Part shown: positions 21,755-36,534 of the stretch, piece by piece
Position numbering within the stretch: position 1 is the first letter of the stretch
Layout of the letters: every line of letters starts with the position of its first letter
Assembly (NCBI GenBank): GCA_019057815.1
Contig: JAHLWR010000006.1
Coordinates: forward strand, 96,001-160,000
From: Candidatus Heimdallarchaeota archaeon
Lineage (GTDB): Archaea > Asgardarchaeota > Heimdallarchaeia > Heimdallarchaeales > Heimdallarchaeaceae
Length of the DNA stretch: 64,000 nt
Direction: 5' to 3'
Notes under the pieces: model-generated
What the model was told of the DNA's origin: nothing
The model's input: only the letters and a program-made list of their open reading frames with translations
The model's database searches: none
Program-made: the position numbers and the translations under genes

Positions 21755-21967
21755 GTGAATTTAATTTCTATCCGACTTCCGAGTGAATTTGTTGAAATTA
21801 TAGATGAAATGGTAATGCAAGGAAAATTTGCTTCAAGATCCGAAGCCATTAGACTTGCACTTAGAGACTATTACCGTGAACACTATTCTAATCGACAATC
21901 AACAGATTTCAGCTTTCCAAATGTGGAATATGCAGCTTATCGTAACATAATCTATAAGGAAGACTAA
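21755..21967 (+). CDS. Ribbon-helix-helix (CopG/CdrS-like) regulator
   Basis: LISIRLP...IDEMV..G.FASRSEAIR.ALRD; GGTGA RBS. Confidence 0.9.
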   Translation: MNLISIRLPSEFVEIIDEMVMQGKFASRSEAIRLALRDYYREHYSNRQSTDFSFPNVEYAAYRNIIYKED

Positions 21968-22130: not shown

Positions 22131-23129
22131 GTGGAGAACGATTCCAAACAAAAGCATAAGGTGAAAAATAAAACAACTATTGAATCAGATGATTCTGTAA
22201 AAAAAGTTGACATTTTTTACCAGAATGTAAAGCAAAGTCTTAATCCTATTATGCACTTTGCTAAAAAGAAAATTGTTCGTTATACGCTCTCCTTTCTTAT
22301 TTTGACTATCGTTGTTTATTTTTATGTTCTCTTTGAAAGTAGAGGAACATCAAACCAAGTACATGTATTCTTTTTTGATATGTCCCCCGATTTCTTAGTT
22401 CCTATTGGTTTAGTTCTAGCACTTTTAGCTCTTTTGTATGTTAGTTGGGATGATGAATTCTTTAAAAAATACCGTGGAGCAGGTTTTTTTCTTATCGTAC
22501 TAACAGCTATTTTCTATACTTTTATTTTCACAGGAATTGATCAATATCTATTTGACCTCTCAATAGCAAAGTGGTTAACACGTTTAACAGGAACTATTGT
22601 TACTTCTATACTTATGTTATTTGGGATGAATATAACTGGTACTACTTGGGATTCTGATCGTGGGATAACAATTGTTTCTTTTAATGGTCCAAGCGATGCT
22701 TCAGTCATAGGGATTGACGCTGCTTGCAGTGGTATTCACTCTTTGACAATCTTTATTGTTGTATTTTTTGTTATGATTTTAGAAGCTCGGAAAAGGCTAG
22801 CATGGAATTATAAAATAGCTGTTATAACTCTTTTCGGGATTTTAGGAACCTATTTTGTCAATCTTATAAGGGTAAGCATAATCCTTACAATTGATTATTT
22901 TAAGGGTTGGGATGTTGCAGGGCCAATTCATAATTATCTAGGGTATGTGTTCCTAATGGTATGGATTCCACTCTTCTGGTTTTTTGTACTCTCGTGGGGG
23001 CAAAAGGGAAAATCAAAAAAAGATTTGATGGAAACCATTATTACAGATACAGATTCTGAAAAACCAACAGATACAGAAGTAAAAGAAGATACAACATCAA
23101 AGATGATTCATGACATGGATGCAAATTAA
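22131..23129 (+). CDS. Exosortase/archaeosortase family transpeptidase
   Basis: Multi-TM; catalytic Cys (ACSG), Arg (NLIR), His (IHNYLG). Confidence 0.88.
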   Translation: MENDSKQKHKVKNKTTIESDDSVKKVDIFYQNVKQSLNPIMHFAKKKIVRYTLSFLILTIVVYFYVLFESRGTSNQVHVFFFDMSPDFLVPIGLVLALLALLYVSWDDEFFKKYRGAGFFLIVLTAIFYTFIFTGIDQYLFDLSIAKWLTRLTGTIVTSILMLFGMNITGTTWDSDRGITIVSFNGPSDASVIGIDAACSGIHSLTIFIVVFFVMILEARKRLAWNYKIAVITLFGILGTYFVNLIRVSIILTIDYFKGWDVAGPIHNYLGYVFLMVWIPLFWFFVLSWGQKGKSKKDLMETIITDTDSEKPTDTEVKEDTTSKMIHDMDAN

Positions 23130-23169
23130 AGAGTTCTTTTCTTATATTATGAGTCTGAAAGAAGAAAGA

Positions 23170-24339
23170 CTAACCTAGTATTTTTTCATATATGGTCTGA
23201 GTTGCTGCTGCTGTATTTTTCCATGAGTATCTAAGCGCTATTTCTTTAGATTTCTCTCTAACTTCGATGATTTTCTTAGGATTATTGTAAAGTTCAACAA
23301 TTTTTTCTGCGAAACTATTTACTGTTCTTTTGCAAATACTTATAGTATTATCATGTTCAAAAGTTACAGCATCAGGCGTTGAAACTATTGGTGTCTGACA
23401 TGCTAGTGCTTCCAGTAATGTTAAGTTCATTGCTTCATGACTAGAAGGAAGTAAGAAAATATCAAGAGAGCTGTAAAAACTGCTTTTTTTACTGTCACCG
23501 TGGATATAATCCATTACTTCAATGTTTTTGGAAAGATTGTATTTTTCGGTTAGAAAATCGATTTTCTTTGTAACATTAGAGAAATCTCCTGCAAGGAGTA
23601 GTTTAACTTTAGGTACTTGTTCTTTCACTTTACTCAATATAGGAAACAATAACATCGTTCCTTTTGCAACCATCAATCGCCCCATATACCCTAAGACAAG
23701 ATCATCTCCTTTTTTCTCGTAAGTTTTTTGATCTGTATAATGTATATTTGTCATGTCAACACCATTTGATATGACAGCAATCTTACTTTCTTCAATCTGA
23801 TAGTGTTGGATGAGTTCATTTTTAATGACATCGCTTACTGCAATAAGGTGGTTCGCTCTTTGTAATAGTTTTTCTTCTATTTTCTTCAACCAAGGAAAAG
23901 CAAAAAACAATCGTTTCTCAACCCAATTTAAAGATGAAAACGATTCTCCTTGTATTCCCCTTCTTTCCCTTGTAAAAGTTGTATGAATTGTTTCTACGAT
24001 AGGATACTCGTTTTTAATGCCTTTTGATGCAAGGAGATTCATGTTTCCATGTACAATTGTTGGCTTTATTCTGTCAACTTCCTTCCTTGATTTTTTCCAA
24101 TAACTACGAGAATAGAAAAATTTGGATTTCGATGTTTCTACTAATTGCAAATTAAAGGGATATTCTTCAACTTCCTGTCTAGATTTATCATTTCGAAGCG
24201 CACAAATAATGTGCGATTCCCATTCTCCTAACTTCACTAAAGCTTCTGCTAAACGTGAACAATAAACCCATGTCCCACCTTTTTTGTACTCTTGGGTGAG
24301 CATACATACTGATTTACTGTTCATTTTTTGTTCCTCCAC
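23170..24339 (-). CDS. Glycosyltransferase family 4
   Basis: GG, AVS, NGVD, GRL..KG, EX7E (EAMNLTLLE), YSW. Confidence 0.92.
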   Translation of the reverse strand: MEEQKMNSKSVCMLTQEYKKGGTWVYCSRLAEALVKLGEWESHIICALRNDKSRQEVEEYPFNLQLVETSKSKFFYSRSYWKKSRKEVDRIKPTIVHGNMNLLASKGIKNEYPIVETIHTTFTRERRGIQGESFSSLNWVEKRLFFAFPWLKKIEEKLLQRANHLIAVSDVIKNELIQHYQIEESKIAVISNGVDMTNIHYTDQKTYEKKGDDLVLGYMGRLMVAKGTMLLFPILSKVKEQVPKVKLLLAGDFSNVTKKIDFLTEKYNLSKNIEVMDYIHGDSKKSSFYSSLDIFLLPSSHEAMNLTLLEALACQTPIVSTPDAVTFEHDNTISICKRTVNSFAEKIVELYNNPKKIIEVREKSKEIALRYSWKNTAAATQTIYEKILG

Positions 24340-25234
24340 TTACTAGTGAGCTCTGATTTAGTGTTGGCCAATTTTTTTTAGATTTAAAGAGTGATGAATG
24401 TGTTATTAACTTCATATCATATTTCATAGCTTTTTCGATGATTTTTGATAATACTTTTTTCATTTTGACAGGTTCAAATATTGCATGTACATAAAGGCAA
24501 ACATAATTCTTTCCTTGATCAATGTATTCTCTAAATCGTTTTTTATAGAACCTTTCTATTTTTTCCGTTGAATAACCTCGCTGTAATAGTTGTTCTATTG
24601 TAGGTTCTGTTACAGGAAATTGAATTACTGATTTTTCTTGTTCCTTTTTTTCATCATTTTCGTATTTTAAGTAGAATGGGTGAGGATAGCAAAAATCAGC
24701 TGCAAACTCAAAACCCTTATCGTTTAATATTTGAAAATAGTATGGATTTACAATAAAATTTGGAGATGCATTTCCTCTGGGAAATTGGTCAAAAACCTTA
24801 TGAAATTCTTGTTTTGTAGCTTCAAGAAAATATTCAGTTTGTTCTTGATTGAATGAGCTGAAATGCCTGCTCCAGTTAATATGATTATAACCATGAGCAT
24901 AGAATTCTACCATTTCGTTTTTTTCATACTCTCTCAATTGTTTTGCTTCTTTCATTCCAATATATTTAGATGGTAACACGATTCCACGCAAAATATCCTT
25001 CCAATGATTCCTATTTAATATTGAAATCCTTCTACCTAAAACTTTCTCCTTCTCCTTAAGTATTCGAAATATATTCCTCCCAGTTGCATATTTTCCCATA
25101 CTCAAGTAAAAACTTGTAGGACACTCGTGTTGGTTTACAAAATAGACGGTCTTTGGAATACCTTTTTTTATTCCTTCAAAAGTATCTACGTCGACTCTTA
25201 AACAGAAATTTGTTTCAGTTTGCATTACTTTCAC
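24314..25234 (-). CDS. ArnD-like NodB/CE4-fold deformylase/deacetylase
   Basis: LRVDVDTFEG..KGIP, SFYLSMG..TGRNIFR, HGYNH..W, VHA..E match the ArnD pattern (LRIDVDT..G..EGVP). Confidence 0.8.
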   Translation of the reverse strand: MKVMQTETNFCLRVDVDTFEGIKKGIPKTVYFVNQHECPTSFYLSMGKYATGRNIFRILKEKEKVLGRRISILNRNHWKDILRGIVLPSKYIGMKEAKQLREYEKNEMVEFYAHGYNHINWSRHFSSFNQEQTEYFLEATKQEFHKVFDQFPRGNASPNFIVNPYYFQILNDKGFEFAADFCYPHPFYLKYENDEKKEQEKSVIQFPVTEPTIEQLLQRGYSTEKIERFYKKRFREYIDQGKNYVCLYVHAIFEPVKMKKVLSKIIEKAMKYDMKLITHSSLFKSKKNWPTLNQSSLVSGGTKNEQ

Positions 25235-25244
25235 ATTTTTCTCT

Positions 25245-26465
25245 TTATTTTTCTAAAGCTCTTAAGTAAATTTGCTCTATTTCTTCAGCCTTTTTCTCCC
25301 ATGAGTAGTGTTTTAATATTTCTTCATTTCCATTCTTCGCCATTTCTTCAGCTTTCTCATTTGATTGTAGAATCTCAAGTGTTCCCTTGGCAATTTCTGC
25401 AGGATTCATTGAGGGGACTAGCACACAATTTTTCCCGTAGTTTGAAATTTCTCTTATACCCGGGATATCAGAAGCTACAACTGGTTTTCTCATAGCCATT
25501 GCTTCTAGAACACTTATGCTCGATGCTTCTACAATGCTCGGTACAACAACAACGTCTGCTGCGGAGAGATATGAAGGTATAGTAGAATTAGGTAACATTC
25601 CTATCAGTTCAACATTAGATTCAAGATTCAGATTTTGCACTTCTCTCTGAATTGTTAATTTTTCTGGACCGTCTCCAATTATTATCAATTTTGAAGTAGG
25701 GAATTCCTCAATTATTTTCTTGAAAGCTTTAGTTAAAAATAAAACACCGTTTTTCACCACTAAACGACGCGTAGTCATTATTATTGGTCCTTTTTCATCT
25801 ATAAGCTTCTCATTAGGTTTAACATTTGAGTTGAATTTCTTTGTGTCTACTCCATTAAGAACCGTTAAGATTTTGTCGTGAAATTTCGGTTTGGACCAAC
25901 TTTTTACTAGATTTGCAAATTCGTAATCCGTATGAATCTGGTAGTGACATTTTTTTGTTAGTAAAGGTGCTAATCTACGTTCCATAGATCTGTATAAACC
26001 AGCAACAAAACGGTTTTTGGTTAAATGTTTCCAGTGTTTATAGTAAGAACCATGAATCGTGTTGATAATTTTTGCTCCTCTTTTTTTCCCTAGTAAGTAA
26101 GCAGCTAATCCTGAAGAATAAATGTGTCCGTGGAATATGTCGAAATCCTCCCATTCTTTCAATTTTATGGATTTAATTGCTACTTTAGTTAAGAAAAATA
26201 ATTGGCGTAAGAATTTCAATTGTTGTGGATCATAAGCTCTCCGAATCAATGAACAAAAGTCGAGTCTCTGGATATCAATACCTTCTAACTGTTTTTTTTC
26301 TTCATTGTCCGGAATCGCCCCAGTTATGTACGTGATTTTATGTCCTCTTCGAGCTAGTTCCTTTGAAAGGTTATAAGCATGTAACTCTACTCCTCCTCCA
26401 ATACTTCCTGCATCGTCAGGACCGAGTTCGAATAAAGTTGCTATATGTAAGGGCATTGATTTCAC
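25245..26465 (-). CDS. Glycosyltransferase family 4
   Basis: GGGVE, TIHG, NGVD, RL..KNG, GDGP, EX7E (EASSISVLE), YSW. Confidence 0.93.
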   Translation of the reverse strand: MKSMPLHIATLFELGPDDAGSIGGGVELHAYNLSKELARRGHKITYITGAIPDNEEKKQLEGIDIQRLDFCSLIRRAYDPQQLKFLRQLFFLTKVAIKSIKLKEWEDFDIFHGHIYSSGLAAYLLGKKRGAKIINTIHGSYYKHWKHLTKNRFVAGLYRSMERRLAPLLTKKCHYQIHTDYEFANLVKSWSKPKFHDKILTVLNGVDTKKFNSNVKPNEKLIDEKGPIIMTTRRLVVKNGVLFLTKAFKKIIEEFPTSKLIIIGDGPEKLTIQREVQNLNLESNVELIGMLPNSTIPSYLSAADVVVVPSIVEASSISVLEAMAMRKPVVASDIPGIREISNYGKNCVLVPSMNPAEIAKGTLEILQSNEKAEEMAKNGNEEILKHYSWEKKAEEIEQIYLRALEK

Positions 26466-27460
26466 TTTTCATTTGATTTGAATATTTCTTGTAAGATGCC
26501 AATACTCCACCATATATGACCAATTATATACATGATTGGAAGTAAATAGAGAAATTTTGCTTTTTTATATTTAATAGTTAGAATGACTGAATAAAATAAC
26601 AAAATCACAATATACAACCCCACATATCCACTGAAAATATATAACAATATGTGCTGGATAAAGGAGCATATTCCAAATAAGAAGCTTATTCCAAGTAAGA
26701 TTAGTGTGATGTAATGTAGTGGTGGTATTAAGTGCCAGAACTCTAAACCTGTACGATGAACTCTAAAGAATTGTATTTTGCCTTTTGCATATTTTTTCGA
26801 TTTATTTCGTAGAGATTTGAAGTTTTGGGGTCTTTGATGAAATACAACTGCATCTGGTGTAAAGAAGAGGAGATACCCTTTTCGGATTAACCTGAAATTA
26901 ATATCTGTATCTTCCGCAGTTATTAGAGATTCATTGAAAGGCATCACTTCTTCTAGATATTCTTTCTTGTATGCAACATTACATCCTGCTGCACTACTGA
27001 CATATCTTTTCTTTTTGTTGAAAATACTTTGAGACTGTTCAGACCAACTTCCACCTATAAATGATTGGTATACCGCACTTACTGCTTTCCCAAAGGTGGA
27101 TTCATTTGGATATTCAATATTGGGACCCGTTATAGCTACTACTATTCCTTCATGTTCTTCAGAAAATGCTTCAACTAAAGTCTCAATCCAATCTTCCTTT
27201 GCAATACAGTCAGAATCAGTAAAAATAATGATTTCTCCTTGAGCTTGTAGAATTCCAACATTACAAGCAGCTGCTCTTGAACCTCCATTCTCAAACAAAA
27301 TCTTACAACCAAACTCTTCAGCTATTTCAACGGTTTCATCTTTTGAATGTCCATCAATTATGATGATTTCATCTGGCTTTTTTGTTTGATTTTGAACAGA
27401 TATAAGGCATTCTTTCAATGTTTTTGCGTTATTGTAGGTTGGAATGAGAATAGATATCAT
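26462..27460 (-). CDS. Glycosyltransferase family 2 with C-terminal TM helices
   Basis: ISILIPTYN, IDG.S.D.T, DSD (DxD), EDTD, hydrophobic C-terminus. Confidence 0.93.
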   Translation of the reverse strand: MISILIPTYNNAKTLKECLISVQNQTKKPDEIIIIDGHSKDETVEIAEEFGCKILFENGGSRAAACNVGILQAQGEIIIFTDSDCIAKEDWIETLVEAFSEEHEGIVVAITGPNIEYPNESTFGKAVSAVYQSFIGGSWSEQSQSIFNKKKRYVSSAAGCNVAYKKEYLEEVMPFNESLITAEDTDINFRLIRKGYLLFFTPDAVVFHQRPQNFKSLRNKSKKYAKGKIQFFRVHRTGLEFWHLIPPLHYITLILLGISFLFGICSFIQHILLYIFSGYVGLYIVILLFYSVILTIKYKKAKFLYLLPIMYIIGHIWWSIGILQEIFKSNEK

Positions 27461-27462
27461 TG

Positions 27463-27990
27463 TTAAGTATCACTCTTTGAAATAATTATATCTTCTTCAA
27501 GCAAAAAATGTTTCCTCTTATAGCCACCAGTTTCATACATAACTTGTTGATATTCATGGATAGTTTGGGGACTATTTTTGAGCATTTGAACCACAATTTC
27601 CTTTATCTGTTGCCTCAATTCTTCTGTACCTAATTGTTCTGTTAACGGACAATACCATGTTAACCATCTCACAGAATATTCGTTTTCATTTTTTTTCTTT
27701 AATTTGAGAAAGATTGGAAAAAATTTACAATCTAAGGGTCGGTGATTATATATAGAGCACAATCCTTTCTCTGTTAGAAAATAACAGTCTTTGGTATCAC
27801 CTTTTTTGCTGACTACAAAAATGGGCTTTTTGTACGTGCCAATATTTAATATCCAATCTCCACCAACTGTTTTTTCTTTAATTATCTTAATGTCCTCAGA
27901 AGTTAAGCCTGGAGGAGTACTTCTACAACACTTACTACCGCAATTAGTTCTACATATTTCGATGCCTGATTCTTTTCTCATTTCACACAC
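27463..27990 (-). CDS. YkgJ-family (CxxCxxCC-type) Fe-S/Zn protein
   Basis: CRTNCGSKCC, CYFL...GLCSIY..RP..C..FP. Confidence 0.88.
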   Translation of the reverse strand: MCEMRKESGIEICRTNCGSKCCRSTPPGLTSEDIKIIKEKTVGGDWILNIGTYKKPIFVVSKKGDTKDCYFLTEKGLCSIYNHRPLDCKFFPIFLKLKKKNENEYSVRWLTWYCPLTEQLGTEELRQQIKEIVVQMLKNSPQTIHEYQQVMYETGGYKRKHFLLEEDIIISKSDT

Positions 27991-28005
27991 TACTTCCTGA
28001 CAGAA

Positions 28006-29277
28006 CTAGCTAAATTGAAAGGCTTCATTAACCATAGTTTCTAAATTATCTGCTGATTTGATGATTTTTAATAAACCAGATTCTTGTAATTCATAGACAG
28101 CTGGTCGAGGATATCCAAATTGCTCACTCATTGAAAGTGTGTATGCTCCACAGTTTAAAATTACAAGATAATCTCCTTCCTCAATTTTGAAATCAACTGA
28201 TTCATTTGATAAAACGTCAACAGGAAGGCATAAAGGCCCACCTATGCGGCAATATTGTCCTTTTCCTTTATCTTGCATTGGAAGGACTCCATAATTGGTA
28301 TACCGCATAGGAATTAGAGTGTTGGCACCAATGTCTGTAAATGCCCATTTTCTCCCCCAAGTTTTTTTTGTTCTCAACACTTTAGTTATAGCGATGAAGC
28401 TGTCTCCAACAAAATAACGCCCAAGTTCAAAAATGATCAATTTATTGTCAATATTAGAAATTATATCAGTTATTTGGGATCCTAATTTCTCTAAACTAAA
28501 CCCATTAGATTCTAATTCAGAGCGTGAAGTTAAACCTCCACCTAAATTGATTTCTTTAATTAGAATTCTGTGGTTTTGTTCTAGTTCTTTGATATAATCA
28601 TCTAGAAATCTTAAAAGCTCTTCATAAAAACTGTGAGACGCAATATTGGTTCCAACATGGACATGAACTCCTAAAGGTTCTAAGAATGGGCTTTCGCTAG
28701 CATATCTGTAAAGTTTTACAGCACGCGCAAAATCTATTCCCAGTTTACTGTTCTTTTTAATTAACATTCTTTTTTCTGTTTCTTTTCTTAAATTAGGGTG
28801 TATTCTGACTGTAACGTGTTGAATTTTATCACTTTTTTCCGCTATTTTTTCTATCAGTTTTAATTCATTAATCGAATCAACATTTACTCTATCAATCCCT
28901 AAATCAGATGATAATTGCAATTCTTCCTCAGTTTTAGCAGGTCCATTGAAGATAATATCTTTAGCGTTAAACCCGCATTTCTCAGCAAGTTTTAATTCAA
29001 ACATGGACATAACTTCAACACCCATACCAACATTTTTAGCTACTGATAGCACTCTACCAAGATAATTGGATTTTACTGCATAAGAAATCATTAAATTCGA
29101 TATATTCTTTGATAAAGACACTTTAAGATGATTATAATTATCTTCAAAATGTTCAGGTAAGAAAACAAAGAAAGGCGTTTTTATATTCTTAGTACTGCTC
29201 TCAATAGATGCTCCACTAGCATAAAGAACATTGTTTTTGTATGATAAATATGAATATTTCTTCACTAAATTTTTCAT
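28006..29277 (-). CDS. Fold-type III PLP decarboxylase (LysA/ODC/BtrK family)
   Basis: YAVKSN (PLP Lys), FNGPAK, HVHVG, NLGGG, ELGR, GPLCLPVD, GAY. Confidence 0.9.
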   Translation of the reverse strand: MKNLVKKYSYLSYKNNVLYASGASIESSTKNIKTPFFVFLPEHFEDNYNHLKVSLSKNISNLMISYAVKSNYLGRVLSVAKNVGMGVEVMSMFELKLAEKCGFNAKDIIFNGPAKTEEELQLSSDLGIDRVNVDSINELKLIEKIAEKSDKIQHVTVRIHPNLRKETEKRMLIKKNSKLGIDFARAVKLYRYASESPFLEPLGVHVHVGTNIASHSFYEELLRFLDDYIKELEQNHRILIKEINLGGGLTSRSELESNGFSLEKLGSQITDIISNIDNKLIIFELGRYFVGDSFIAITKVLRTKKTWGRKWAFTDIGANTLIPMRYTNYGVLPMQDKGKGQYCRIGGPLCLPVDVLSNESVDFKIEEGDYLVILNCGAYTLSMSEQFGYPRPAVYELQESGLLKIIKSADNLETMVNEAFQFS

Positions 29278-29457
29278 TACTTTCTACCTAAACAGACCTT
29301 ACTGAGTTTTTAATATATGACAATTGTGTTTATCTGCTTAATTAGTTTGTTTACTTCTAGTAATTTAGTTTAAAATAGCATAGAATTTTCCATTTAAGTT
29401 TTATCAGTTTATCGTTCTAGCCACTAGATTTTTGAATGAAATTTCTTTCAGTATATT

Positions 29458-30621
29458 ATGGACAGACAACAAATTCAACTTCAACTGTCCGAAGTTCAAG
29501 ATAAAGTACTTTTAAGCGAGGGTGTACGAGGACTACTCAAATTTTTAGCTGTTATTGATCGCTTTCCAAATTCGGGAATACGAAGAATATCACGAGAAAC
29601 AGGTTTTCCAGTTCCTATTTGCGTCGCAATAAGAAATGAGTTCGTAAAGAAAGGTTGGTGTAAGAAAGGTAACGGAACTGTTGTGACTTCTGAAGGAAAA
29701 GATATTTTTCTATTTTTCAGCTCGCAGAATACAAGTTTTAGATGTGGAAACTGCGAAGAATATGGTGTGTTTTTCCCATTAAAGAACTATGAAAAAGAGT
29801 TAGAATTAATTAAGAAGTACACCCAATTAAGAGGACAACCAGATACAAAAATAGATCAGTCTTTCGCTACATCTCGAACTAGTCTATATAGAGCGCTCTA
29901 TATGATTCATAACTATGATCTGTTTTCAGGTGATTTTGCTTTAGTAGGTGATAGTGATTTAACAAGCATTGCAATCTCTCAATTTATCCCGAAATCTTCG
30001 AGAATAACGGTGTTTGATATTGACTCTAAACTTGAAAATATTATTAACACTGCAAACAAGGAACTTTCAAACAAGATTGAGTTTGTAAAACACGATTTGT
30101 ACCAACCTATACTAGAATCTTATCATGGAAAGTTTACGTGTATACATACAGATCCACCTTATACCAAGCAAGGATGTAAATTATTTATATCGAGAAGTGT
30201 AGATTTGATTAACAAAAAAACAGGTGGAGCAATATATTTGTCTTTTGGGAATAAACCACCAGTTGAAATGAAACAAATACAAGAAGATCTTCTAAAAATG
30301 GGTTGTGTAATAACTAATATTCTCCCTAATTTCAACAAATATATTGGTGCTCAAAAACTAGGCGGTGTTTCGACCTTTTATAGATTACAAGTTATTCCTT
30401 CAGCAATCCCTATCATAGATGGTAGATATGAAGGTATGCTTTACACAGGGGAAGTCAACCCCACTATTAGAAAATATAAATGTCAAAATTGCAATAGGAC
30501 AACAACTGTTGGAATTACAGAAGAGTTTTCAACAATTGAAGAGCTAAAAAATAAAGGGTGTCCCAAGTGTAAGATGAGCTCTTTTACAAAGATTAGCGAA
30601 AAAAAGAGGGAAGAATTTTAA
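29458..30621 (+). CDS. BpsA/DUF43-family SAM-fold aminopropyl- or methyl-transferase with C-terminal Zn ribbon
   Basis: DQ...T..T...R, VGDSDL.S, VFDID, TDPPYT..G...F.SR, CQNC...CPKC. Confidence 0.82.
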   Translation: MDRQQIQLQLSEVQDKVLLSEGVRGLLKFLAVIDRFPNSGIRRISRETGFPVPICVAIRNEFVKKGWCKKGNGTVVTSEGKDIFLFFSSQNTSFRCGNCEEYGVFFPLKNYEKELELIKKYTQLRGQPDTKIDQSFATSRTSLYRALYMIHNYDLFSGDFALVGDSDLTSIAISQFIPKSSRITVFDIDSKLENIINTANKELSNKIEFVKHDLYQPILESYHGKFTCIHTDPPYTKQGCKLFISRSVDLINKKTGGAIYLSFGNKPPVEMKQIQEDLLKMGCVITNILPNFNKYIGAQKLGGVSTFYRLQVIPSAIPIIDGRYEGMLYTGEVNPTIRKYKCQNCNRTTTVGITEEFSTIEELKNKGCPKCKMSSFTKISEKKREEF

Positions 30622-30647
30622 AACCATTAGAAGCTATTATTGTTATA

Positions 30648-31325
30648 ATGAGGATATTTGAGACTATCCACCCAATAATGGGTGTGGGTAATTCTTATTT
30701 AATTTTACGTGAAGCTGAATGTGTTTTAATAGATACGGGATACTCCAGAAGTGCAAAAAAAATAATTAATGCAGTGAAATCATTTGCCTCTGATAGACCT
30801 CTTGCAACAATAATAGTAACCCATGCACATCTTGACCATATTAGAGGGTTGGAAACACTGAGTATCCTATTTGGAGCAGAAGTAGTTGTTCATAAAGATG
30901 AAGGCAATTTTATAATGAAATTAGAAAAATTTCCTCGCGCACAAGGATTTTTGTCAAATATTGTCACAAAATTAACTGAGTTAATGTCTCCCCCCCCATA
31001 TCCTATTGATCGTGTGGTAACAAATGGAGAAGTAATACATGGACTGAAAATTATACATGTCCCGGGGCACACCCCGGGTTCAATAGCTTTGCTGGACAGC
31101 GTGACTGGTGTATTGTTCTCGGGTGATGCAATTACAACTAATAATAAAGGCTCTAAGATCTTGCCACCCCACAGACTGTTTTGCATTGATATTAAAGAAG
31201 CTAGGAAATCTGCATTACGGTTAATAAATGACACTCAACCTAGTGCAATATTACCTGGACATGGAAAACCAATTTTGGATCCAGAGGAGCACATGTCGGC
31301 ATATAAAACTAAGTTTGGTGGATGA
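30648..31325 (+). CDS. Metallo-beta-lactamase-fold hydrolase
   Basis: IDTG, THAHLDH, PGHTPGS, GD, PGHG. Confidence 0.93.
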   Translation: MRIFETIHPIMGVGNSYLILREAECVLIDTGYSRSAKKIINAVKSFASDRPLATIIVTHAHLDHIRGLETLSILFGAEVVVHKDEGNFIMKLEKFPRAQGFLSNIVTKLTELMSPPPYPIDRVVTNGEVIHGLKIIHVPGHTPGSIALLDSVTGVLFSGDAITTNNKGSKILPPHRLFCIDIKEARKSALRLINDTQPSAILPGHGKPILDPEEHMSAYKTKFGG

Positions 31326-31329
31326 TTTC

Positions 31330-32976
31330 GTGACCAAAAAATCATTCGTAACATTCCTGATTCTAAGTGAGATTATCGCACTATTTCTAATCCTGTTTTT
31401 TAATATTGGAATGTTTGGTTTTGATGCTTACATCCATCTCCAATACTGCAGCGCGATTTTAGAGAACAAACATATTTTACAACTAAGTATAGCAAAGAGT
31501 TATTATGACTTCGTAGGCTTCCATATCTTTATTTCTGCTATCGCTTCTTTAACAAGTATCCCTGTATCTGCAATTTATAAATTTGCGAGCGTAATCGTGC
31601 CTATATTGGTTTTTAATCTAACAATAATCGCATTTATTCGTCATGTTGAAAAGAAAAGGAAAGGTTACATTTCAAATGGTATTAATTTACAATACTTGTC
31701 ACTTGTTCTCTTGTTTCCTTCTTTGATAGGAATCCAGATGTTTTTTGGTCGACCAAACTCTCTTGGTATCGCATTTTTTAGTCTTTGTCTCTATCTTTAT
31801 CTGTGTAAAACAAAAAGTTTCAAATCTCAATTATTGGCAGGATTGTTAGTTATTGTCACTGTAAAAATTCATCATTTATCTGCTATATTCTTACTACCTG
31901 TTATATTCTTTACAAGTATATTTTTAGCAAGTAATTACAAAACTATATTGTCTTTAATCTACACTTTTCCAGCGGTTATAGTCGTAAATACAATTCTTGA
32001 TTCAAGAGAGTTTAATATTGTTAACTTTTACTTATCAAAAAATGAAAATTATGTCATTTTTTATGATATTTTTATCTCAAATCTTGCTGTTTTTCTAATT
32101 GTATGGTTAGCATTAACTTTGTTAGGATATATCGTCCGTTCAAAATATCAAGAAAAGGTTGTTAACTTCTTTGCACAACGTAAATTGAGTAGAAAATTAT
32201 TTATTTTATTTATCGGAAGTATAACAATATTAGAAGTTGTGGGGTTGTATCTTTACACAACTCAACTTTCATCGTGGTATATCAGTGTTGAATTAACAAT
32301 CTTATTTATTTTAAGTGGAATAGCTTTGTTACCCTCAAATAATGTCAGGAATTCTCTTTTTACTTTAGGGTTCATCTTTTATGGTTTAACCGTTGTGTTC
32401 TCTCTTGTTTTCAGTTCTACACAGCACGAGCTTTCATGGATTGCTCCAAGAACTTTTATTTTCGCGATTATTTTCTTTAGTATTTTATCATATGTATCTA
32501 TTTCAGACTTTCTTATCTTTTTGAAGAAAAAATGGGTGGTATTATTTATACCAATTCTTCTTTTCAATGTGTATGTAAGTTTTTCTTATATTGGTAGTCA
32601 TTACATTCCAGAATATAATCTGAATAATAGTTACGAGAATTTAACTTTCGCTTACTGGATTGAAGCAAACACTAACACTTCTACTTTTACAGCTAGCATC
32701 CCTTTTTCTATAGCGAAATTTATTGATGGTGTTGATATTTATAGACTGCAAGTGTTGCTAGATATACATTCCACTATCTCGCAGAATACTATTAGGTTAA
32801 CATCTTCGTATCTAACGTATATTACAATTGGAGCAACAATGGATCAATGGTTGGGCTCACCTTTACGTCTTTCTTCAGAAAATATAACCTATTACATAAA
32901 TACATTATATTATAATCAACCAACTTTTCACTGTATACTTAGCAATGGGAAAAACTGTCTCATGTACAATTGGTGA
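31330..32976 (+). CDS. Polytopic GT-C-like membrane glycosyltransferase
   Basis: About 12 TMs; GFDAYIH in the first loop after TM1 (cf. DxYxH of GT-C enzymes); soluble C-terminal domain; start refined to GTG 31330 after the MBL stop. Confidence 0.6.
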   Translation: MTKKSFVTFLILSEIIALFLILFFNIGMFGFDAYIHLQYCSAILENKHILQLSIAKSYYDFVGFHIFISAIASLTSIPVSAIYKFASVIVPILVFNLTIIAFIRHVEKKRKGYISNGINLQYLSLVLLFPSLIGIQMFFGRPNSLGIAFFSLCLYLYLCKTKSFKSQLLAGLLVIVTVKIHHLSAIFLLPVIFFTSIFLASNYKTILSLIYTFPAVIVVNTILDSREFNIVNFYLSKNENYVIFYDIFISNLAVFLIVWLALTLLGYIVRSKYQEKVVNFFAQRKLSRKLFILFIGSITILEVVGLYLYTTQLSSWYISVELTILFILSGIALLPSNNVRNSLFTLGFIFYGLTVVFSLVFSSTQHELSWIAPRTFIFAIIFFSILSYVSISDFLIFLKKKWVVLFIPILLFNVYVSFSYIGSHYIPEYNLNNSYENLTFAYWIEANTNTSTFTASIPFSIAKFIDGVDIYRLQVLLDIHSTISQNTIRLTSSYLTYITIGATMDQWLGSPLRLSSENITYYINTLYYNQPTFHCILSNGKNCLMYNW

Positions 32977-32982
32977 TTACTT

Positions 32983-34134
32983 ATGACCCCCTTACGTATC
33001 GTTCAAGTGACACCTTTTTTTGGTTACAGACAATATGGTGGAACAGAGCGCTTTGTTATGAATTTGTCTGAAGAACTAGCTGATAGAGGACATCACATCG
33101 ATGTTTTTTCCACAAAACATTCAACAGAAATCCCTTATCAAGAATATTATAAGAACTTAACAATTCATAGGTTTTATAGCCCAGTAAATTTTTTTGGTAT
33201 AAATCCTGCTTGTATAATGTTACATAAATTATTGAAAGTTAAAGAAATTGATGTTTTTCATGTACATTCTTATATCTATTTTACAAGCATTCAAGCTGCA
33301 TTAGCGAAACTATTCAGGAGAATTCCTATTCTTTTGCATATTCATGGTGGGATTGGACGTCCACCCTATAAGACGAGCATGTTGCGTCATTTTGCCAAGC
33401 TATTTTATGATCAGACTTTTGGTAGTTTTGTATTACATCAATCAGATCTTATTGCCTCAGTAAGTGCTTGTGATGCTGAAATATTGAAAATTTCCGCTCC
33501 TAAGAAAAATGCTAGTATTTTTATTATTAATAATGCTATTAATGTAGAAAATTTTCCTGAAGTAACTCCAAGAGTGCAAGATAATTTTGTTGTAACATAT
33601 ATAGGAGATCTTGAACCTTGGAAGGGCGTTGTATATTATGCCCGAGTGATTAAAGAAGTATTGAAGAATAACAAGAAAGTAGTTTTTTGGTTTATTGGAA
33701 GCGGTTCTCTGTCCTCATCACTTCAAGATTTCTTCAAAGGTCAACAAAGGGTAAAATTCTTTGGCACTGTTAACCACAAAACAATACCTTCATTATTATC
33801 AAAGACTAATTTACTTGTTCACCCCAGTTACTGGGAAGGTTCTCCAACAACAATTATTGAAGCAATGACTATGGGTATCCCTATAATTGGGTCAAAAGTT
33901 GGAGATATTCCACGTCTTCTTAGATATGGCAAAGCTGGAACTTTATTTGTTGCAGGCAATGAAACCCAACTAAGAGAAAAAATAGAGGATGCGCTTACAA
34001 ATTATGACGAAATGATCTCTACTGCTCAAAAATATCGAAGAGGGTTTAGAGAGGACTTTTCACTCAAAGTTGTTACTGACAAAATCGAAAAATTATATTA
34101 TACACTTAGCACCAAAGAGAACTTAAAACGTTAA
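32983..34134 (+). CDS. Glycosyltransferase family 4
   Basis: GGTE, GHHIDV, HIHG, KG, EX7E (EGSPTTIIE). Confidence 0.92.
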   Translation: MTPLRIVQVTPFFGYRQYGGTERFVMNLSEELADRGHHIDVFSTKHSTEIPYQEYYKNLTIHRFYSPVNFFGINPACIMLHKLLKVKEIDVFHVHSYIYFTSIQAALAKLFRRIPILLHIHGGIGRPPYKTSMLRHFAKLFYDQTFGSFVLHQSDLIASVSACDAEILKISAPKKNASIFIINNAINVENFPEVTPRVQDNFVVTYIGDLEPWKGVVYYARVIKEVLKNNKKVVFWFIGSGSLSSSLQDFFKGQQRVKFFGTVNHKTIPSLLSKTNLLVHPSYWEGSPTTIIEAMTMGIPIIGSKVGDIPRLLRYGKAGTLFVAGNETQLREKIEDALTNYDEMISTAQKYRRGFREDFSLKVVTDKIEKLYYTLSTKENLKR

Positions 34135-34475: not shown

Positions 34476-36194
34476 GTGAGTGAAAGATGGGTAATAACAG
34501 CTGCATGGCCATATGTAAACACAGTACCACATCTAGGTACTATGTTACAATTGTTGAGCGGAGATGTGGTTACTAGATACCACAAATTAAGAAAACATGA
34601 AGTATTGTATGTGAGTGGTAGTGATATACATGGTACTCCTATTGTAGTGGCAGCTGAAGCTGAAGGAATAACCCCAAAGGAACTAGCATTAAAATATCAT
34701 AAAATAATTTTACAATTATTAAAAGACTGGAATATCGAGTTTGATAGATATACAACTACTGGTAATGAAACACACATCACTTTTGTACAAGAATTTCATA
34801 AAAAAATACATGAAAACGGGTATTTTGATCTAAGAGAAACTGAGCAATATTTTTGTGAATACTGTAAAAAATTCCTTCCAGATCGTTTTGTTGAAGGCAC
34901 TTGCCCAACATGTGGTGAAGAAGGAGCAAGAGGAGATCAATGCACCAATCATGAATGTGGAGTAGTACTTAAACCAGTTGACTTAATTAATCCATACTGC
35001 TCAACATGTAATAATACTCCAATTCTAAAAAAAACAGAACATTGGTATTTTGACTTACCCGCATTTTCAGAAGAACTCAGAAAATTTATTGAAGAGAATC
35101 CTCATATCCCCTCTTTTGCAAAAAAGAAAGTTTTGAGCATGATTGATAAAGGGTTAAAAGAACGACCTATTTCAAGAGATATGCAATGGGGGATACCAAT
35201 TGCGCCTATCTTTGGTGAGGAATTCAAGAAAAAAGTCATATATGTTTGGTTTGAAAATGTTTTAGGATATCTTAGCACAGTCAAGTTAATAGCCAAGGAA
35301 CAAGGAAAAACCGATTTATTTGAAAATTTCTGGTTAAATAAGAACACCAAAACCGTTTTCTGTATTGGAAAGGATAATATAATTTTTCATGCATTATTAT
35401 TCCCTGCAATGTTGATGGCGACAAAAGATTCGTATCCACTGCCACATGCAGTAGCAACAACGAATTTCCTAATGTTTAAAGAAGGTCCATTTTCGAAGTC
35501 AAAAGGAATCGGGATATGGGGAGATGAAGCCATTGAAATTGAAAAAGCTGATTATTGGCGTTATTATCTTATTTCGACTAGACCAGAGATGAAAGATACA
35601 TATTTTGATTGGAGAGAATTTGGTAATGCTATTAATGTTGATTTGAATGATGTTATTGGTAATTTTATTCATCGAACAGTTACATTCATCTCTCAACACT
35701 TTGACGGAAAGATTCCTGAAAGAGGAAAGTTAGGAGATGAAGAAGAAAAATTACTTTCAGAAATTGAGAAAAGTGTTCAAGACTATAAGAATGCAATGGA
35801 TTCTTTCAAACTAAAGGAGGCAGCTAACGCAACCCTAGTTTTAGCAAGAAAAGGCAATTTGTATCTCTCAACTACACAACCTTGGCATTTAATAAAAAAA
35901 GATAAAGCGAAAGCTGGGCAAGTGTTGAATATATCTGCAAAAATCGCTGAGACTGTTTCATTGCTTTTATGGCCCATTGTTCCAAGTGCAAGTGAAAAAC
36001 TGTGGGAAGTTATTGGATTTAAGGGTATACCACCAGACACAGGGATTGATTATCTAGATATAAATTTAACTAATGATGGTCAAGAAGTAAAAAAAAGCCA
36101 ACCTATATTTGGAAAAGTAAAAGTAAAAGAAGTGGAAGAAAAATTAACAAAACTAAAGGAAGAAGCAAAAAGGAGAAATGAAAATGGAAGATAA
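34476..36194 (+). CDS. metG: Methionyl-tRNA synthetase (catalytic part)
   Basis: AWPYVN..PHLG, GSDIHG, two Zn knuckles, ISRD..WG, YVWF, GKDN, FSKS. Confidence 0.97.
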   Translation: MSERWVITAAWPYVNTVPHLGTMLQLLSGDVVTRYHKLRKHEVLYVSGSDIHGTPIVVAAEAEGITPKELALKYHKIILQLLKDWNIEFDRYTTTGNETHITFVQEFHKKIHENGYFDLRETEQYFCEYCKKFLPDRFVEGTCPTCGEEGARGDQCTNHECGVVLKPVDLINPYCSTCNNTPILKKTEHWYFDLPAFSEELRKFIEENPHIPSFAKKKVLSMIDKGLKERPISRDMQWGIPIAPIFGEEFKKKVIYVWFENVLGYLSTVKLIAKEQGKTDLFENFWLNKNTKTVFCIGKDNIIFHALLFPAMLMATKDSYPLPHAVATTNFLMFKEGPFSKSKGIGIWGDEAIEIEKADYWRYYLISTRPEMKDTYFDWREFGNAINVDLNDVIGNFIHRTVTFISQHFDGKIPERGKLGDEEEKLLSEIEKSVQDYKNAMDSFKLKEAANATLVLARKGNLYLSTTQPWHLIKKDKAKAGQVLNISAKIAETVSLLLWPIVPSASEKLWEVIGFKGIPPDTGIDYLDINLTNDGQEVKKSQPIFGKVKVKEVEEKLTKLKEEAKRRNENGR

Positions 36195-36534
36195 AAGAAA
36201 GGTAAAACAAGAAAGGATAAGTTTCACTGAATTTCAAAAGATGAAATTAAAAGTTGCCACAATTAAACATGCTGAAGAAATAGAAAAGAGTAGGAATTTG
36301 ATTAAACTAATAGTAGATCTTGGAATTGAAGAAAGACAAATACTAGCAGGAATCAAACAATATTACAAAGCTAAAGATCTAATAGGAAGACAGATCGTTG
36401 TTATTGTAAACCTAGAACCTGCAACATTAATGGGAGAAAAATCTGATGGTATGCTAATGGCTGCGGATATTGATGGAGAGCCCATACTACTTCAACCAGA
36501 GAGAGAAGTTCCACCTGGTACACCAATCAAGTAG
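36178..36534 (+). CDS. Stand-alone MetRS C-terminal / Trbp111-like tRNA-binding OB protein
   Basis: ISFTEF.K..LKVA, RQILAGI, VNLEP..LMG..SDGM. Confidence 0.92.
   Translation: MKMEDKRKVKQERISFTEFQKMKLKVATIKHAEEIEKSRNLIKLIVDLGIEERQILAGIKQYYKAKDLIGRQIVVIVNLEPATLMGEKSDGMLMAADIDGEPILLQPEREVPPGTPIK

Follow-up and report, generated by a model that had tools for sequence, protein, structure and literature searches.

A putative second archaeosortase type and two co-varying blocks of glycan genes around an older putative amine module in Heimdallarchaeaceae

The window analysed here is a 64,000-nucleotide stretch of a Candidatus Heimdallarchaeota genome (GenBank assembly GCA_019057815.1, contig JAHLWR010000006.1, positions 96,001 to 160,000 of the forward strand); the genome (G000) measures 3.74 Mb and is 95% complete. 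Within it lies a gene of the exosortase family, a putative archaeosortase, surrounded by genes for glycosyltransferases, a deacylase, a polytopic membrane protein and a putative amine module, and homologs of the window proteins are annotated as Heimdallarchaeaceae or Heimdallarchaeota. The initial annotation of this locus had named 11 open reading frames (ORFs), all of which are present at the coordinates and on the strands it claimed. Domains were called from matches to Pfam and NCBIfam profiles. In the following list, blocks L and R are the two gene sets that come and go together among relatives, and the backbone is the part that is kept independently of them.

21755-21967, plus strand: small ORF of 70 amino acids (aa) upstream of the sortase, ribbon-helix-helix (RHH)-like by reading of its sequence; conserved backbone.
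22131-23129, plus strand: putative second-type archaeosortase, 332 aa, about six predicted transmembrane (TM) helices; block L.
23170-24339, minus strand: GT4a, a glycosyltransferase of family 4 (GT4), 389 aa, without TM helix (PF13439 and PF00534); block L.
24314-25234, minus strand: ArnD-like deacylase of carbohydrate esterase family 4 (CE4), 306 aa, no signal peptide or TM helix (NF011923); block L.
25245-26465, minus strand: GT4b, a GT4 glycosyltransferase, 406 aa; block L.
26462-27460, minus strand: glycosyltransferase of family 2 (GT2), 332 aa, with two C-terminal TM helices (PF00535, 112.7 bits); block L.
27463-27990, minus strand: YkgJ-type CxxCxxCC metal-binding protein (PF03692, 43.1 bits); backbone module.
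28006-29277, minus strand: fold-type III decarboxylase dependent on pyridoxal phosphate (PLP), of the Orn/DAP/Arg type and LysA/BtrK-like (PF02784 and PF00278); backbone module.
29458-30621, plus strand: BpsA-like amine-modifying transferase (PF01861, 140.7 bits); backbone module.
30648-31325, plus strand: hydrolase of the metallo-beta-lactamase (MBL) fold (PF00753, 105 bits); backbone or accessory.
31330-32976, plus strand: orphan 12-TM membrane protein, 548 aa, recognised by TM prediction and invariant residues; block R.
32983-34134, plus strand: GT4c, a GT4 glycosyltransferase, 383 aa (PF00534 and PF13439); block R.

The minus-strand operon runs in the order PLP decarboxylase, YkgJ, GT2, GT4b, ArnD-like deacylase and GT4a. 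Read from the decarboxylase downwards, neighbouring genes are first separated by 15 nt and by 2 nt, then overlap by 4 nt, are separated again by 10 nt and finally overlap by 26 nt. The divergent plus-strand operon comprises the BpsA-like, MBL, 12-TM and GT4c genes, separated by 26, 4 and 6 nt. The 3′ end of the sortase gene lies 40 nt from the convergent GT4a gene. A hexapeptide transferase gene and the RHH-like ORF border the locus on one side and the methionyl-tRNA synthetase (MetRS) gene on the other. The ORF check thereby confirmed the operon layout described initially, including a sortase that converges on the minus-strand operon.

Profile searches placed the window sortase in the exosortase/archaeosortase superfamily (TIGR04178/PF09721), with 42.8 bits against the TIGR04178 signature (cut-off 23). 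All 23 members of its clade likewise match TIGR04178, and 21 of the 23 match ArtC (TIGR03762), against which the window protein itself scores 40.9 bits, far under the cut-off of 100. Neither it nor any of the 23 clade members matches the heimdallarchaeosortase model NF045528 (cut-off 130 bits). Six TM segments are predicted in the window protein, and Cys199, Arg247 and His267, the triad pointed out in the initial annotation, are invariant across the 23 clade sequences, as are Arg220 and Asn244.

The genome holds two exosortase-family genes, and the paralog on contig C23 reaches 252.8 bits against NF045528. This heimdallarchaeosortase type occurs in 80 of the 83 Heimdallarchaeia genomes that make up our comparison set. 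Orthologs of the window-type sortase were found in 27 of the 30 other genomes of the family, in genera g1, g2 and g5; the three that lack one are G004 (g3) and two closed genomes of g4, G005 and G006. Beyond the family, we detected a single homolog in G001 of family f2, 40% identical, and a single weak match in G047 of family f5. Judged by these profile matches, the window sortase is a second archaeosortase type, as yet without a name and nearest to ArtC, that is additional to the near-universal heimdallarchaeosortase. Heimdallarchaeaceae thus run two sortase systems in parallel.

Synteny, assessed from genome-search coordinates and from tblastn of fetched loci, ties this sortase to the glycan genes. 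In about 26 genomes (protein identities of 40-55%), virtually all relatives that have the sortase, an ArnD-like ortholog lies convergently 1-2 kb from it, which upholds the proposed association of the sortase with glycosyltransferase and ArnD-like genes. Wherever the contigs of family genomes allow, BpsA-like and 12-TM orthologs follow on the same contig. In G023 (g5), the left part of the locus reads ThiF, hexapeptide transferase, RHH, sortase, GT4a, ArnD-like, GT4b, GT2, YkgJ and decarboxylase, and the divergent right part BpsA-like, membrane protein, GT4c and MetRS; the left arm in G003 (g2) is identical in order. The MBL gene is missing from the G023 locus and present in G004 and G003. GT4a orthologs (46% identical) and GT2 orthologs (60-62%) are found in G023 and G003, those of GT4a in syntenic position, and a GT4c ortholog (59%) follows the membrane protein in G023. 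The 12-TM protein occurs in 26 of the 30 other family genomes and is absent from G003-G006.

The sortase-less genomes reveal what remains when these genes are missing. At the orthologous site, G004 carries ThiF, Yip1, hexapeptide transferase and RHH, then YkgJ and decarboxylase divergent from BpsA-like and MBL, and then MetRS; neither block is there, and GT4a and GT4c are accordingly absent. G005 keeps the BpsA-like gene and the decarboxylase-YkgJ pair in another context, followed by an amino-acid kinase gene, and so retains three of the four backbone genes. The closed genomes G005 and G006 have no sortase, ArnD-like or 12-TM gene. Decarboxylase orthologs of 57-58% identity thus stand without sortase or glycosyltransferases in G004 and G005, and BpsA-like orthologs are present in all 30 other family genomes, the sortase-less ones included. 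Since the module occurs alone in G004 and G005, the decarboxylase, YkgJ, BpsA-like and MBL genes are independent of the sortase and glycosyltransferases.

The contrast between G004 and G023 is not merely one of evolutionary distance, because the housekeeping identities of the two to the window genome are similar: 65% versus 70% for MetRS, 74% versus 69% for the hexapeptide transferase, 58% versus 60% for the decarboxylase and 51% versus 54% for the BpsA-like protein. By such identities, genera g3 and g4 match g5 in their distance from the window genome. The 11-gene cluster, which the initial annotation had taken as one unit, is therefore a composite of an older four-gene backbone and seven genes in two separated blocks. 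Block L (sortase, GT4a, ArnD-like, GT4b and GT2) and block R (12-TM protein and GT4c) are present or absent together. The RHH-like ORF was considered as a sortase-specific regulator and rejected: it occupies the same position in G004, G023 and G003 (tblastn identity 59-76%) and belongs to the backbone.

Two further arrangements were noted among the relatives. G017, a metagenome-assembled genome of 2.8 Mb with 5% contamination, holds two sortase-ArnD-like arrangements, on contigs C65 and C82, which may reflect strain heterogeneity or real duplication. In genus g2, an extra ORF for a 411-aa polytopic membrane protein with no Pfam match stands between the sortase and GT4a (locus L069, G003:C28, 3704-4939); it could be a flippase-like addition.

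A sortase of this kind calls for C-terminal signals, and a motif-TM-basic signal family, as anticipated in the initial annotation, was found in the window genome. A six-frame ORF scan for proteins of at least 150 aa with a hydrophobic helix followed by a Lys/Arg tail at the C-terminus recovered 236 proteins, 211 of which also carry an N-terminal hydrophobic segment. Two large tail families emerged. The first has the form ...YYSFTVSE(V/I)IPEFQ-TM-QRRKK and numbers 11 members, one of which reaches 18.7 bits against the PEF-CTERM model TIGR03024 (cut-off 23). The second, ...DLYPLDEP(A/V)EY...-TM-ISKK, has at least 23 members and 62 matches to its hidden Markov model. Both occur on beta-helix-repeat proteins with the same signal peptides, which suggests, from the sequences compared, that sorting tails behave as exchangeable modules between paralogs. 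Examples lie in G000 at C1:196504-196668 and C24:103322-103486, where near-identical signal peptides are combined with either an IPEFQ-type or a YPLDEP...AEY-type end.

The dipeptide E-[FY] falls within the 15 residues before the TM helix in 51 of the 236 tails, versus about 19 in control windows (EF, 26 versus 8; EY, 25 versus 11). It is mostly preceded by P, V or A, and 22 of the cases lie outside the two large tail families. Tails in other genera share one layout: the beta-helix end (DLYPL) is joined by a linker to P-V-x-(P/A/V)-E-(F/Y), after which come the TM helix and the basic residues. In homologs from G004-G006 and family f7, the linker, the TM helix and the basic tail are retained and the tripeptide is missing. 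Existing models of related signals stayed below their cut-offs in the window genome, with a best score of 22.6 bits for Heimdall-CTERM (NF045529, cut-off 24) and 18.2-18.7 bits for PEF-CTERM.

We then followed the signal across genomes with a signal-only profile of 33 positions (A5), built from our own tail alignments and counted where a match was full-length with E<1e-3. Such matches occur in 23 of the 30 sortase-positive genomes versus none of the 53 sortase-negative ones, and in 13 of the 20 sortase-positive genomes outside the training set. The best matches in sortase-negative genomes have E values of 1.7e-3 or worse and cover the TM and basic part only. Only one genome outside the family is signal-positive: G047, and among the f5 genomes it alone gives a match, a weak one, to the window sortase. 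The YYSFT...IPEFQ family as a whole was rejected as a tracker of the sortase, its N-terminal repeat being found also in f5, f7 and G004-G006; within that family, only the signal part discriminates sortase-positive genomes. A giant ORF of the window (48872-64000, minus strand, more than 5000 aa, running off the window) was likewise rejected as a substrate, having no C-terminal TM tail.

ArtC is named as the enzyme assigned to PEF-CTERM in the passage of PMC5244752 that cites Haft et al. 2012. Taken with the nearest profile of the enzyme and the tail statistics, the window sortase most likely serves a relaxed PEF-CTERM-like signal on dozens of Sec-exported beta-helix proteins. PGF-, GF- and PF-type tails would then be left to the near-universal heimdallarchaeosortase, an assignment of sortase to signal that we infer from correlation. 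As a separate observation, G047 carries a sortase match of 33% identity at a contig end (C169:9428-9730) and a strong LPIPEF-TM-KKRK tail (C232:2063-2215), which could be contamination (7%) or a remote second instance of the system.

The ArnD-like protein matches the ArnD model NF011923 with 89 bits over residues 10-288, short of the equivalog cut-off of 382, and the only match in a PDB sequence search is Salmonella ArnD (8T0J, E 1e-11). Its RVDVDT and HGYNH segments align with RIDVDT and HAWDH of ArnD, the Asp-x-Asp and His-x-x-x-His motifs, and D15, D17, H114 and H118 are invariant in 26 homologs. An AlphaFold2 (AF2) model of good confidence (pLDDT 83.5, pTM 0.84) has ArnD 8T0J as its top Foldseek match (E 2.8e-16, TM-scores 0.69/0.77), above generic CE4 deacetylases. 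The ArnD-like call of the initial annotation is confirmed by the NCBIfam and PDB sequence matches together with the modelled fold.

Neither the ArnD-like protein nor any of the three GT4s has a TM helix or signal peptide, and because of this their chemistry is expected on the cytoplasmic face. With such a location, a substrate linked to a lipid or nucleotide is more plausible than a polymer that has been exported. The best curated resemblance of GT4b is to retaining GT4s that use UDP-N-acetylglucosamine, with 124 bits for BshA and 84 bits for MshA, both below cut-off. In the bacillithiol, mycothiol and glycosylphosphatidylinositol (GPI) pathways, a GT4 acts first and a de-N-acetylase next. The GT4b-ArnD-like pair looks like the old core of the glycan gene set, being kept even in f2. 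The exosortase-associated GT4 families stp1-3 score 70-105 bits across the first two GT4s, below cut-off.

For the GT2, the initial annotation had suggested an ArnC-like membrane enzyme. The GT2 domain and two C-terminal TM helices (residues 250-268 and 279-297) stood up, and the ArnC specificity did not, the score against NF007986 being 23.8 bits at a cut-off of 529. Among solved structures, chondroitin synthase and GalT1 come closest to it, and its likeness to ArnC, GtrB and DPMS is one of architecture only. The locus contains none of ArnA, ArnB, ArnE or ArnF.

The 12-TM protein likely starts at 31330 (548 aa), since its homologs align from about residue 35 of the 582-aa ORF. Twelve TM helices are predicted; the loop that follows TM1 carries an invariant GFDxYxHxQY, and about 135 aa at the C-terminus form a domain outside the membrane. 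An invariant D32 in the first outer loop, the 12 TM helices and the C-terminal domain are traits of GT-C glycosyltransferases, necessary for such an assignment and not sufficient. A profile search of 1.84 billion (1.84e9) representatives returned only the protein's own family and one weak outlier without annotation (P0100, hhalign 95%), and DUF6541 appeared below threshold in 5 of the 25 family members. Look-alikes in ESM features (0.98-0.99) were GT-C-type clusters auto-named dolichyl-phosphooligosaccharide-protein glycotransferase or RgtA-D-like, with PMT_2 tags on 12% of members.

Other searches with this protein were negative. A PDB profile search gave no match, no similarity to STT3/AglB or PMT_2 was detectable, and hhalign against two PMT_2 proteins stayed under 1%, a weak test made with single sequences from an over-strict genome search. 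The AF2 model, built with 25 homologs, has a pLDDT of 48.9, and VIA on this low-confidence model returned generic helical bundles at noise level, with the GT-C protein CeDPY19 at Z 7.0. The GT-C label of the initial annotation was thus not confirmed, and we regard the 12-TM protein as a candidate GT-C-like transferase, ligase or polymerase.

The probable task of the backbone module, whether a sortase is present or not, is to make or modify an amine. Its decarboxylase scores 246.6 bits against lysA (TIGR01048), below the cut-off of 297.9, and 153.6 bits against the exosortase-A-associated family TIGR03099, also below cut-off. The closest solved relatives are LysA 2P3E (185 bits), then BtrK (137 bits) and D-Orn/Lys decarboxylases. 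Although it is the only LysA-like gene of the genome, a reading as housekeeping LysA was rejected on the sub-threshold score, on DapF not being found in this 95%-complete genome and on the pairing with BpsA-like and YkgJ genes. The pairing of the BpsA-like gene with the decarboxylase is specific to the family and does not occur in the homolog loci of f5 or f7.

The BpsA-like protein contains the BpsA_C domain and matches BpsA 5XNC with 96.8 bits, and its C-terminus carries a Zn-ribbon-like CxxC...CxxC. The BpsA motifs are altered at the aligned positions (GDDD to GDSD, DPPE to DPPY). Selenocysteine was considered for in-frame stops in its matches and rejected: the stops are of all three kinds and most matches reach the query end, as natural stops would. 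A second, shorter BpsA_C paralog of 287 aa (G000:C42:26615-27364) is present in nearly all family genomes; it may be the ordinary polyamine enzyme, leaving the window copy for another role.

Collectively, these features suggest the following model. The four-gene amine module between the hexapeptide transferase/RHH genes and MetRS would be the older part, and in one Heimdallarchaeaceae lineage (g1, g2, g5) two blocks would have come to flank it, transcribed from its operons or converging on them, so that the seven genes may act as one accessory cell-surface system. By family resemblance, the sortase would cut P-V-x-(P/A/V)-E-(F/Y) tails through a thioacyl intermediate at Cys199. On the cytoplasmic side, GT4b would add an amino sugar to a lipid-linked acceptor and the ArnD-like deacylase would then de-N-acylate it; GT4a, GT4c and the membrane-anchored GT2 would presumably extend the glycan, and on the outer face the 12-TM protein would act on the product, whether as transferase, ligase or polymerase. 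The likeliest coupling, though a speculative one, is that the free sugar amine of the lipid-linked glycan would resolve the sortase acyl-enzyme, and that surface proteins would end up amide-linked to a glycolipid or glycan.

We put a probability of roughly 0.55 on the joint proposal, namely a second sortase with its signal, the putative glycan pathway, and the seven genes forming one system. That the de-N-acylated sugar of the lipid-linked glycan is the sortase acceptor and that surface proteins are amide-linked to it is an argument from analogy, which we offer as a tentative possibility. The broader notion that the sortase moves xE[FY] proteins onto a glucosamine-type amine, as an archaeal exosortase-based counterpart of GPI and of the linking sugar of type IX secretion (T9SS), appears slightly more doubtful still.

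Several observations weigh against the proposed seven-gene system. The positive genomes all belong to one family, which makes their counts interdependent, and synteny extends to the flanking housekeeping genes. The sortase converges on the glycosyltransferase genes and is not co-transcribed with them. In G001 the sortase homolog has no glycosyltransferase neighbours, and a GT4b ortholog (45%) adjoins the ArnD-like gene (30%) on another contig. On the signal side, the A5 profile was trained on sortase-positive genomes only, G003 has the sortase and shows only a marginal signal match, and the heimdallarchaeosortase could process the same xE[FY] tails. On the glycan side, the locus contains no flippase and no initiating phosphoglycosyltransferase, sequence and model searches did not establish the fold and role of the 12-TM protein, and the covalent link between protein and glycan is a prediction only.

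Two rivals to the sugar-amine acceptor deserve serious weight. Some of these points suit a reading in which the genes are co-regulated and the two chemistries separate, the gene set making a surface glycan, exopolysaccharide (EPS) or cationic glycolipid while the sortase trims or releases proteins that associate non-covalently. For the bacterial PEP-CTERM/EpsH systems, such non-covalent association was the original picture. EPS loci harbour 90% of the EpsH genes in bacteria, but EPS production was unaffected when EpsH was knocked out (PMC1569441). The ArnD-like fold suggests a lipid-linked amino sugar of the Arn type, whose known role is charge modification, and the sortase is convergent rather than co-transcribed. 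We nevertheless hold this reading to be rather unlikely: it leaves the gain and loss of the sortase with the two-block glycan genes without explanation, and the locus has no chain-length regulator, Wzx flippase or export genes. The blocks could also be joined by dedicated glycosylation, with the glycosyltransferases building a lipid-linked oligosaccharide that the 12-TM protein, as an oligosaccharyltransferase, loads onto the sortase substrates at their Ser/Thr-rich stalks. The same proteins would then be acted on by the sortase and by glycosylation, at different sites. The 15 residues before the TM helix are indeed enriched in ST, TT, TD and TE (ST, 64 versus 14 in controls), and the ESM look-alikes of the 12-TM protein include glycotransferase-named clusters. 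Both this pathway and the shared-substrate arrangement seem unlikely to us, however, given a membrane protein without detectable STT3/AglB or PMT_2 similarity and no evident part for a de-N-acylase.

The broader alternative, closer to the initial annotation, assigns all 11 genes to one pathway, whose product, a glycolipid bearing an amine or polyamine, the sortase would use. The glycan genes are appended to both operons of the module, so that the divergent promoter region is shared; curated exosortase-A-associated PLP decarboxylase and GT4 families exist, with matches below cut-off here; and BtrK-type enzymes are among the closest solved decarboxylases. Set against this are the module standing alone in sortase-less G004 (four genes, same site) and G005 (three genes), the missing MBL gene in the g5 locus of G023, and the lack of an acyl carrier protein (ACP), ligase or FemAB-like transferase that could join the amine to the sugar, which together make it quite improbable. 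A purely neutral explanation, in which the sortase and glycan genes are neighbours through general conservation of gene order in the family, would account for ThiF, hexapeptide transferase, RHH and MetRS being syntenic across genera too, for all evidence coming from one family and for the solitary sortase homolog of G001. It would have to accommodate two separated blocks, the sortase included, that come and go together while the backbone stays constant, a sorting signal that tracks the same genomes, and sortase-glycan neighbourhoods that recur in unrelated lineages (PMC1569441); we consider it very improbable.

The proposed seven-gene system can be set beside several known ones. One is ArtC/PEF-CTERM: ArtC is the best curated subtype for 21 of the 23 clade members, the signal consists of a P-E-F-like tripeptide, TM helix and basic tail, and each genome has many substrates with N-terminal signal peptides. 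The window enzyme and signal differ in falling below the respective models (40.9 versus 100 bits and 18.7 versus 23 bits), in a tripeptide relaxed to (P/A/V/S)-E-(F/Y), in their restriction to Heimdallarchaeaceae and in their fixed place beside a glycan gene set. The heimdallarchaeosortase/Heimdall-CTERM system (NF045528, NF045529) shares the superfamily, the organisms and the tripartite kind of signal, but it is the C23 paralog that matches its model, whereas the window enzyme gives no match and the xE[FY] tails fall below cut-off.

The bacterial PEP-CTERM/EpsH/XrtA systems resemble the locus in a sortase set among GT4 and CE4 genes and in several secreted substrates with motif, TM helix and basic tail. 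GT4 (PF00534) and CE4 (PF01522) families co-profile with EpsH loci in bacteria (PMC1569441), and curated XrtA-associated GT4 and PLP-decarboxylase families are among the best-type matches here. The Heimdall host, by contrast, is a single-membrane archaeon, and the locus has no PrsK/R/T, chain-length, export, FemAB-like or ACP/ligase genes; its deacylase is ArnD-like rather than of the PEP-CTERM-locus subfamily, and its decarboxylase comes from an independent module.

For the speculative acceptor step, precedent comes from the T9SS, where PorU joins cargo by an amide bond to a linking sugar; the amine of that sugar depends on the CE4 deacetylase VimE, and the authors extend the idea to exosortase loci (PMC7468200). 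Both systems would combine a Cys transpeptidase, the sugar amine of a glycolipid, a CE4 deacetylase and dedicated glycosyltransferases. PorU is, however, a gingipain-family protease unrelated to exosortases, its anchor is outer-membrane lipopolysaccharide, and the T9SS amine sits on a seryl/glycyl group added by VimA, of which there is no homolog here. In Haloferax and Methanosarcina, artA-pssA-pssD synteny led to a model in which the amine of archaetidylethanolamine resolves the ArtA thioacyl intermediate (PMC7157517). That case is alike in proposing an amine-lipid acceptor and in finding the acceptor genes by sortase synteny, and differs in that the proposed ArtA acceptor is a phospholipid headgroup, not a glycan.

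The Arn pathway of Gram-negative bacteria shares with the locus a deacylase that is nearest ArnD among solved structures, a membrane GT2 and a large polytopic protein. It differs in ArnA, ArnB, ArnE and ArnF, all missing here, in the GT2 not being ArnC-specific, in the lack of ArnT/PMT_2 similarity, and in the three GT4s, which have no equivalent in the Arn pathway. The GPI parallel drawn in the initial annotation survives as analogy and fails as homology. The order of GT4 and de-N-acetylase corresponds to the first two GPI steps, but PIG-L (LmbE fold) and the caspase-like transamidase GPI8 are unrelated to the CE4 deacylase, which is not PIG-L/LmbE-like, and to the exosortase.

In the searchable literature, we found no mention of Asgard sortase signals or of such a locus, in keeping with the initial statement that no such system had been described in Asgard archaea. 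The pairing of exosortase and glycan genes as such is already known; what is new is the subfamily with its signal, the pairing with an ArnD-like gene and the occurrence in Asgard archaea. To our knowledge, the acceptors of exosortases and of most archaeosortases are an open question, though the enzymes occur in thousands of genomes. Heimdallarchaeia are the archaeal group closest to eukaryotes, and their cell-surface biogenesis is almost unexplored. The locus offers a compact test case, with one sortase, a recognisable signal on many substrates and six candidate acceptor-pathway genes, and close relatives without the seven genes serve as natural 'knock-outs' on a constant backbone. If true, a sugar-amine acceptor would be the first defined acceptor for an exosortase-family enzyme outside ArtA.

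A minor observation concerns the bordering MetRS gene. In the window (34476-36534), one ORF encodes MetRS (572 aa) and another, with a 17-nt overlap, encodes its C-terminal tRNA-binding domain (118 aa, PF01588), and in G004-G006 the protein is a single fused frame of 685-700 aa; the split in the window reflects a frameshift, an assembly error or a real division of the gene.

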